This document shows, one piece after another, positions 1-910 of a DNA stretch of 64,000 nt (the stretch's first letter is position 1; each line of letters starts with the position of its first letter). Made by a program: the position numbers and the translations under genes. This DNA is from Eledone cirrhosa. Taxonomy: Eukaryota. The stretch is taken from positions 88,598,001 to 88,662,000 of the forward strand of contig OZ024743.1 in assembly GCA_964016885.1 (NCBI GenBank), written 5' to 3'. Below the pieces are notes generated by a model that was given only the letters and a program-made list of their open reading frames with translations, was not told where the DNA came from and did not search any database.

Positions 1-615
1 ACGTTAAACAGTGATATGTATACAGAAATGAACTGATGTTTATTTACTCAGAATTAATCTAAAGTCGCAATGCCGAGACACCATTGGAAATGACTATGTC
101 ATTTTTACATTTAATTTTTAGCATAAAATAGTTTTATCTTTTCTTTAACTAATACATAACTTTTATTAATTAAGGGAACAATCAGACCATTGCTTCCTTT
201 AAATAGTTTAACAGTTGTCGAGGTTCATTTCAGAGGTTAGAGAGCGAAATGCTTATAGTCGAAGGTGTTACTGAAATAACACTAACTAGATTTACAAGAC
301 AGCTGTAATATTAATTTCATTCAGGCCTTAATTTAATTTTCCAGCGGAACAGAGATAAACAACAATTATACATTACACACAACAGAGATATGTTACACAG
401 AAAAACATGAATGATATCTTAATTAGCGTCAGCCATTGCCATGTGAGAATTAGTCTGGTGTTGAACAACCTAGCGAAGATATCTGTAAACATCTCGACAA
501 TAATGACGTGAAAATTGAATTAAACATAACAATCATAATAGCAAATCTATCAGGCATGAATTAGTCGTGATATTTTTATGAAAATAAAGCAATTTCAAGA
601 CTAAATTACGTTTAC

Positions 616-648
616 CTTTCGTTTCTTGGATATCTGCTTAACATTCAT
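616..648 (-). CDS. RPS3: Exon 1 of a second 40S ribosomal protein S3 paralog (gene continues off the left edge)
   Basis: Reverse strand reads ATG AAT GTT AAG CAG ATA TCC AAG AAA CGA AAG = [11 protein letters not shown], followed by a GTAAAC donor. Peptide and phase are identical to exon 1 at 29899-29931. A pyrimidine tract CTTTTT lies about 20 nt upstream. Confidence 0.88.
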
Positions 649-910
649 CTTTAATGTAAAGACTAAAAAGACATAGCCTCGAAGTGAATACGACTTCCTG
701 CTTATTGAAATTTATGAACCAAGTTATAAATTATTAAAGTTAGTTAATTTATTTTAAAACTAAATTTAGATTATTTAAAATAAAAAAATAAATATTAAAT
801 ATCACTGTAATAAAAAATAATATATTTGTTCGGCATGTTTGCCTGTAATTTAGTTCCGGTTGATGTCAAAGTTGAGGTCAAACATCTGACAGATTACTTT
901 CATTTCATTC
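649..910. promoter_or_regulatory. Duplicate copy of the RPS3/CTSO bidirectional promoter, including a TCT/5'TOP-like start near 670
   Basis: 841-905 (gcctgtaatttagttccggttgatgtcaaagtt...aggtca...tactttcatttc) matches 30129-30210. It includes an ETS-like CCGGAA on the minus strand. The minus-strand gtCTTTTT at about 665-672 resembles ribosomal protein gene TCT starts. Confidence 0.7.

Follow-up and report, generated by a model that had tools for sequence, protein, structure and literature searches.

Most animal ribosomal-protein families hold one working gene (PMC6993855), so that a retained pair of RPS3 genes is an exception worth recording. The closest known case for the octopus RPS3 pair described here is RpS14a/RpS14b of Drosophila, an adjacent tandem duplicate of a 40S gene with identical intron–exon structure and identical proteins, which probably arose by unequal exchange (PMC2246290). 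The octopus pair involves another gene, in another phylum, and its members are separated by a transposon-filled spacing of 29 kb. For the octopus pair, comparison with a second species allowed homogenisation to be followed for each island separately; in Drosophila, both copies have been shown to be expressed (PMC2246290), while the octopus pair is described here from DNA. A second Drosophila duplicate, RpS5a/b, which belongs to the divergent paralogs with tissue-biased expression, has likewise been kept with its introns, complementary expression being the candidate benefit, but its proteins are only 78% identical while the octopus RPS3 proteins are identical (PMC12704716, PMC2246290). More generally, dose or complementary expression has been argued to be the reason for paralog retention in Drosophila (PMC12704716).

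Homogenised coding sequences associated with diverged promoters, for which dosage has been proposed, have also been described for fungal ribosomal-protein paralogs (Mullis et al., PMC6993855). The fungal pairs stem from genome duplication or retroposition and concern most families, while the octopus case concerns one family, in tandem. In addition, fungal conversion proceeds mainly via cDNA and leaves introns out (PMC6993855), whereas the octopus intron edges are homogenised, which points to a DNA donor. In general theory, interlocus gene conversion needs a few hundred highly alike bases and is broken by insertions, after which divergence resumes (Fawcett and Innan, PMC3924837). The octopus locus would combine three stages of this process, which would have ceased at exon 1, would be breaking down at exon 3 and would still be under way in exons 2 and 5–6. 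No description of the octopus pair was found in the literature on octopus and mollusc RPS3 and on ribosomal paralogs, as covered by titles and abstract openings, with subscription journals thinly represented; similarly, a term search of the main text of the octopus ribosome preprint returned none of uS3, RPS3, paralog or duplicat. We regard the pair as a clear further example of a process that is already known, and not as a case of two ribosome kinds.

The window, a stretch of 64,000 nucleotides, and the DNA that precedes it contain two RPS3 genes in tandem, on the same strand and ~29 kb apart (Table 1). Direct comparison of the spliced exons showed that both copies are complete, with identical intron positions and intact frames. 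The coding exons measure 33, 225, 95, 188 and 185 nt in the left and in the right copy, and the four coding introns have canonical GT/AG ends in both. Introns 1–4 are 1938, 571, 288 and 2539 nt long on the left and 2358, 2114, 87 and 163 nt long on the right; as all four are kept in both copies, neither is a retrocopy produced by intron loss. The encoded proteins of 241 residues are identical, the coding sequences differing by 15 synonymous and 0 non-synonymous changes (7, 0, 6, 2 and 0 in exons 1–5). A Pfam search returned two S3_C matches, one inside the window and a second one in the preceding DNA, at a distance of 2.5 kb from the window, with PF00189 above cut-off in both copies, which places them in the eukaryotic uS3 (RPS3) family. 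Compared with O. vulgaris P0001, a protein with PF07650 and PF00189, three residues differ; four differ from O. bimaculoides and six from Argonauta, which identifies the window as octopod DNA. When the genome (3.0 Gb) was searched with the protein, eight exon matches were obtained, four per copy and none at other loci, these counts being lower bounds. The original prediction, made from a window which the left copy leaves within intron 1, had proposed an old, intron-containing tandem duplicate kept functional in both copies. Splicing of the neighbouring DNA supports a tandem duplicate with introns and with intact reading frames in both copies, left exons 2–5 being present and undamaged, and the comparison with a second species (see below) places the separation of the copies before the species split. 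The further proposal that the animal may make two uS3 variants is wrong for this genome, since the two proteins are identical. Left intron 1 (about −1207 to −1112 relative to the window) contains a second copy of the exon 2 acceptor region. Its use for an in-frame isoform was considered and rejected, because the AG of this copy is out of frame, 136 nt ahead of the true acceptor.

Table 1. Features of the RPS3 pair and of its cathepsin O neighbour (window positions unless a contig is named).
Feature	Position	Strand	Remarks
Left RPS3 coding exon 1 (11 codons)	616..648	-	Exon comparison; organism B: 1 synonymous base change (643)
Left RPS3 intron 1, 5' part (1938 nt total, leaves window)	1..615	-	
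Left RPS3 exon 2	G000:C4 88596677-88596453 (L003 8677-8453)	-	Before window
Left RPS3 exon 3	G000:C4 88595881-88595787 (L003 7881-7787)	-	Before window
Left RPS3 exon 4	G000:C4 88595498-88595311 (L003 7498-7311)	-	Before window
Left RPS3 exon 5	G000:C4 88592771-88592587 (L003 4771-4587)	-	Before window; followed by predicted 3' UTR exon
Left conserved upstream block	839..873	-	34/35 identical to right; promoter element or non-coding first exon
Right RPS3 coding exon 1	29899..29931	-	
Right RPS3 exon 2	27316..27540	-	0/225 differences to left; ~120 nt of upstream intron 96% identical
Right RPS3 exon 3	25107..25201	-	6/95 differences to left, synonymous; shortest homology island (143 aligned bases)
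Right RPS3 exon 4	24832..25019	-	2/188 differences to left, synonymous
Right RPS3 exon 5, stop included	24484..24668	-	0/185 differences to left
Right RPS3 intron	24393..24479	-	Predicted from GT/AG alone
Right RPS3 predicted non-coding last exon	24330..24392	-	AATAAA 24368-24363; left-copy homology ends at 24330
Right conserved upstream block	30127..30161	-	Inside short head-to-head gap common to RPS3 and cathepsin O
Cathepsin O exon 1	30228..30414	+	Head-to-head with right RPS3; I29 E 2.7e-4, under curated cut-off
Cathepsin O catalytic-domain exons	near 49627-49791, 54478-54648	+	PF00112 search
Broken cathepsin O exon 1 remnant with donor and intron start	17868..18014	+	10/143 substitutions plus indels

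The two copies of exon 1 encode the same 11 residues, although 7 of the 11 codons differ, always at the third position. Expressed per site, changes affect 7/10 third positions versus 0/20 first and second positions (Fisher p 5.9e-5). Together with the absence of non-synonymous change over the whole coding sequence, this bias supports the purifying selection that had been proposed from the same codon differences. The 8 sites which differ in exons 3–4 are all synonymous as well; the selection signal in the body of the gene (exons 2–5) is, however, partly confounded by conversion, and since the body is homogenised, a dN/dS ratio computed over the entire gene would reflect neither the age of the copies nor selection cleanly. 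A GT donor directly follows exon 1 in both copies, and in a self-search of the window 481-881 aligned with 29763-30171 at 67.8% identity (426 columns, E 5.85e-29), in agreement with the earlier view of promoter, donor and intron 1 start as homologous but diverged. Used as a DNA query, the right 5' region matched these two loci alone in the genome (2/2 candidates). The 'TCT-like start' suggested at the outset fared less well: a pyrimidine run ending in AG does stand ~15–23 nt before the ATG in both copies, but it also fits the splice acceptor of a 5' UTR intron, so that in both 5' regions (649-873 and 29932-30161, minus strand) the run may be an acceptor rather than a TCT start.

Further upstream, a conserved block stands out from a surrounding region that is ~79% identical, which is modest evidence given that the block was picked post hoc. 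No listed change of the second species, organism B, falls over 835-870. A 16-mer of the block occurs four times in the genome, twice here, the other two occurrences being near a rough chance expectation of about 1. The left block contains CCGGAA, which we take to be ETS-like. It has been kept in the left copy although this copy lost the neighbouring cathepsin gene. The preserved block and the third-position-only changes in exon 1 argue that the left copy has been in use for most of its history. As a side observation, the block may be a non-coding first exon with a weak GC donor rather than a promoter element.

Aligned directly, the two copies form a mosaic. Promoter, exon 1 and intron 1 start differ by 78/375 substitutions (21%) versus 18/1258 for exons 2–5 with their intron edges and 3' UTR (Fisher 5e-36), the latter being distributed in islands around exon 2 (3/352), exon 3 (6/143), exon 4 (5/311) and exon 5 with the 3' UTR (4/452). 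The intron cores do not align and share, as do the outer flanks, repeat-family matches only. Most of the gene is thus 96–99% identical between copies. As this near-identity extends to intron edges and to a SINE fragment located upstream of exon 2, gene conversion is suggested. The exon 3 island is more diverged than the long blocks (6/143 vs 12/1115, p 0.011, in one post-hoc test); it is also the shortest, as would be expected from a process that depends on a similarity of a few hundred bases and is interrupted by insertions (PMC3924837). Left intron 3 corresponds to the right intron plus a ~200-nt SINE with a 12-nt target duplication, and left intron 4 to the right intron plus a 2378-nt element with broken frames inserted between TTAA sites, presumably piggyBac-like. 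This element (window −5114 to −2737) is in sense orientation to RPS3 and contains four AATAAA, which could shorten left transcripts; across its site, organism B has 132 other letters. Searching the window and the preceding stretch (L003) at Rfam gathering thresholds gave three matches in all, two Histone3 stem-loops and one weak tRNA, and no snoRNA in the conserved intron edges; within Rfam's reach, intronic RNA genes are therefore no explanation of the identity.

In organism B (run X4), a single contig covers 419-1000 with 36 other letters over ~575 (about 94% identity). Over the left 5' block 481-881, the left copy shows 31/401 differences to organism B, versus 78/375 to the right copy, indicating that the copies parted well before the species. 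The Jukes–Cantor distances are 0.08 and 0.24, respectively, to be read as a ratio and not as a date. Similarly, 65 of the 78 left/right differences fall where the left 5' region of organism B has no listed change, so that the copy split would predate the species split.

The body of the gene was recovered from organism B as one 896-nt contig for exons 4–6 (depth 34.4) and an exon 3 contig (depth 30.7); flank contigs have depths of 15.3 and about 18.5, the latter from depth cells, and the left promoter 12.7. These body contigs begin within ~10 letters of the end of left/right homology. As a control, run X1 of the window's own species gave a depth of 17.6 for the shared exon 4 versus 7.4–10.1 for copy-specific pieces; no X1 contig extended over the right-type 3' flank. 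From contig depths and ends, we infer that organism B has two near-identical RPS3 bodies, with two reservations: depth summed over contigs does not equal copy number, and small variants are lost in contig assembly, so that one contig means near-identical and not identical copies. Compared with the right copy, the body contigs contain 55 differences, among which the 40 listed individually were polarised: left and right agree against organism B at 36, organism B agrees with left at 3, and one is a gap. Over 24331-25092, 9 substitutions separate left from right versus 47 from organism B. Within the converted zone, the paralogs of one species are thus closer to each other than to their orthologs, the copies of organism B being deduced from depth, and the duplication appears older than the species split, two hallmarks of concerted evolution. 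Residue 199 leads to the same reading. Both window copies have V199, while organism B and 10/10 other aligned proteins have isoleucine; with a duplication older than the change, a derived I199V in both copies means that sequence must have passed from one to the other. As 27 of the 40 listed sites are intronic, the donor would be DNA and not cDNA, and with intron edges 96–99% identical the locus does not follow the cDNA-mediated, fungal type of conversion. The RAD-seq reads on the left 5' stretch (8 in X5, 5 in X7) were too few to be informative. Two X1 contigs (records 1 and 6), which resemble left/right mixtures, fit bubble removal or shared polymorphism alike and were set aside.

Collectively, these data make it very likely that the locus reflects an old tandem RPS3 duplication, with purifying selection on both copies and DNA gene conversion in islands of long likeness. 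A single duplication would have generated two complete intron-containing genes, the duplicated unit likely starting at the 3' end of RPS3, including the head-to-head promoter and ending within cathepsin O intron 1. Repeated DNA-to-DNA conversion would keep the copies alike wherever a few hundred bases of unbroken likeness persist. The 33-nt exon 1 and the promoter likely dropped out of conversion at an early stage, and would then have drifted to 21% with the peptide held by selection. Exons 2–6 and their intron edges would have been exchanged after the split from organism B, with I199V spreading to the two genes. The shared block would since have been interrupted by transposons inserted into the left copy, the smallest island, exon 3, diverging fastest. 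The pair would provide a single uS3 protein under the control of two 5' regions with distinct wiring, and the benefit behind its retention is likely dosage (dose) or expression pattern (complementary expression), rather than a second ribosome kind.

Conversion from a working copy could also keep the body of a silent copy intact. The left gene might accordingly be silent or nearly so, preserved only by the right one, a scenario which we regard as improbable. It would accommodate the SINE and the broken 2378-nt element, with its four sense AATAAA, in left introns 3 and 4, and one member of each Drosophila duplicate pair is indeed far less expressed (RpS14a 154 vs RpS14b 12 cDNAs; PMC2246290). 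Exon 1, however, lies outside the converted zone and yet has accumulated 7 synonymous and 0 other changes (p 5.9e-5), has kept its ATG and donor, and changes only synonymously in organism B. Low expression is possible, but long-term death does not fit.

Slightly less probable still is the absence of any ongoing conversion, a recent unequal crossover or re-duplication having placed fresh exons 2–6 behind an old promoter, separately in each lineage. Once the two left-specific insertions are removed, exons 3–6 form a near-continuous block for which one long exchange could suffice. Exon 2, however, is a separate island of 352 bases between unalignable intron cores, identity differs between islands (p 0.011), and organism B has the same layout with its own sequence; repeated patchy exchange would be needed, which is gene conversion by another name.

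Regarding the origin of the duplication, the right RPS3 copy stands head-to-head with cathepsin O, whose exon 1 has a broken remnant within the spacer as its only other genome match (2/2, DNA search). In another search, cathepsin exon 1 as query gave no match, while a catalytic exon succeeded. The remnant has the order and orientation expected from a doubled unit 'RPS3, promoter, cathepsin exon 1' and is likely the right-hand relic of this unit; at 7% substitutions vs 21% in the RPS3 5' block it looks younger, however, and may have originated later. Apart from it, the spacer between the copies is mostly mobile DNA. Since cathepsin O and RPS3 accessions are adjacent in Argonauta, O. bimaculoides and O. 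vulgaris, the head-to-head linkage is likely ancestral. On the other side, an ATRX-like gene with ADD and helicase-like exons (plus strand, window about −47000 to −13600, L007-L004) lies tail-to-tail with the left RPS3, its ADD_ATRX match (E 0.0044) being under cut-off. Among other 40S families, PF03501 led to one RPS10 locus and PF00338 to three loci, one of them an RPS20 exon; the two others we assume to be mitochondrial-type S10-like proteins. With RPS20 and RPS10 at single loci, there is no evident balanced co-duplication in the 2 of about 80 families sampled. Elsewhere in the genome, the PF00112 search also returned a tandem cluster of at least 4 papain-family genes or gene pieces (G000:C7:28316519-28425775).

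Two other octopus species also have RPS3 pairs. The O. vulgaris proteins CAI9732213.1 and CAI9732188.1 differ only by E82V, as do XP_036364360.1 and XP_029643994.1 of O. sinensis, CAI9732188.1 and XP_029643994.1 being the E82V form (P0002). Each pair shares its own C-terminal residues, as would be expected if one old pair evolved in concert. In O. vulgaris, the second RPS3 is 23 accession numbers away from cathepsin O, on the opposite side; as this order is unlike the gene order of the window, an independent duplication is possible. The human-type chain included in the alignment has E at residue 82, and one other protein has D. The chain of the solved octopus ribosome, 9eho_EE, has E82, and P0002 matches 9eho_EE. 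The site lies four codons before the end of exon 2, and in the window's species homology stops 9 nt into the following intron. For O. bimaculoides and Argonauta one RPS3 sequence is listed each, in which an identical twin would not show. A broader scenario, which is doubtful, is that a second RPS3 has been present in octopods since an early split, or was acquired on two occasions, and retained to meet a demand for uS3 alone, in excess of ribosome stoichiometry or within a separate expression domain. Conversion would lock the proteins while promoters diverge, and E82V, near an island edge, would have escaped in O. vulgaris and O. sinensis, which would give a second, fixed uS3 to an animal with a ribosome already known to be unusual.

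The idea that the two copies supply distinct uS3 variants for specialised ribosomes draws on these same two species, where the paired proteins are one residue apart. It is very unlikely for the locus studied here, whose proteins are identical, and systematic knockouts of 11 Drosophila paralogs revealed no specialised function (PMC12704716); the pair gives heterogeneous ribosomes no support in this species. Finally, although the runs with an exact match to the left copy may be those from which the assembly was built, an artefact, be it an uncollapsed haplotype (already judged unlikely in the original prediction) or polishing that made the exons alike, is hardly credible given 5' ends 21% apart, different flanking neighbours (ATRX side vs cathepsin O side), a left 5' end present in organism B, and separate own-species short-read contigs with left-type and right-type intron edges around a shared, higher-depth exon 4.

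The RPS3 locus offers a natural test case for the effects of homology length and of transposon insertions on the termination of gene conversion. With an identical protein and two old 5' regions, it also opposes dosage to specialisation. In practice, octopus RPS3 reads and primers sum two genes, and short-read assemblies collapse the gene body.

Several mobile elements were identified in the window. An LTR retroelement at 1816-7794, with protease, RT and RNase H matches and coding spread over several frames, has 511-nt LTRs that are 99% identical, so its insertion is recent. A LINE at 9366-12587 carries endonuclease, RT and PHD-finger matches and has a second copy, 85% identical, at 57924-60555. 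Decayed elements occupy 18396-19894, with an RT, and 20830-21980, the latter presumably mariner-like. Lastly, an IS1595/Merlin-type DNA transposon (16106-17453; PF12762, E 1e-17) is bounded by terminal inverted repeats 98% alike over 52 nt, each of which reaches or exceeds the Rfam gathering score for the Histone3 3' stem-loop; this may be a chance likeness or a captured histone processing signal.
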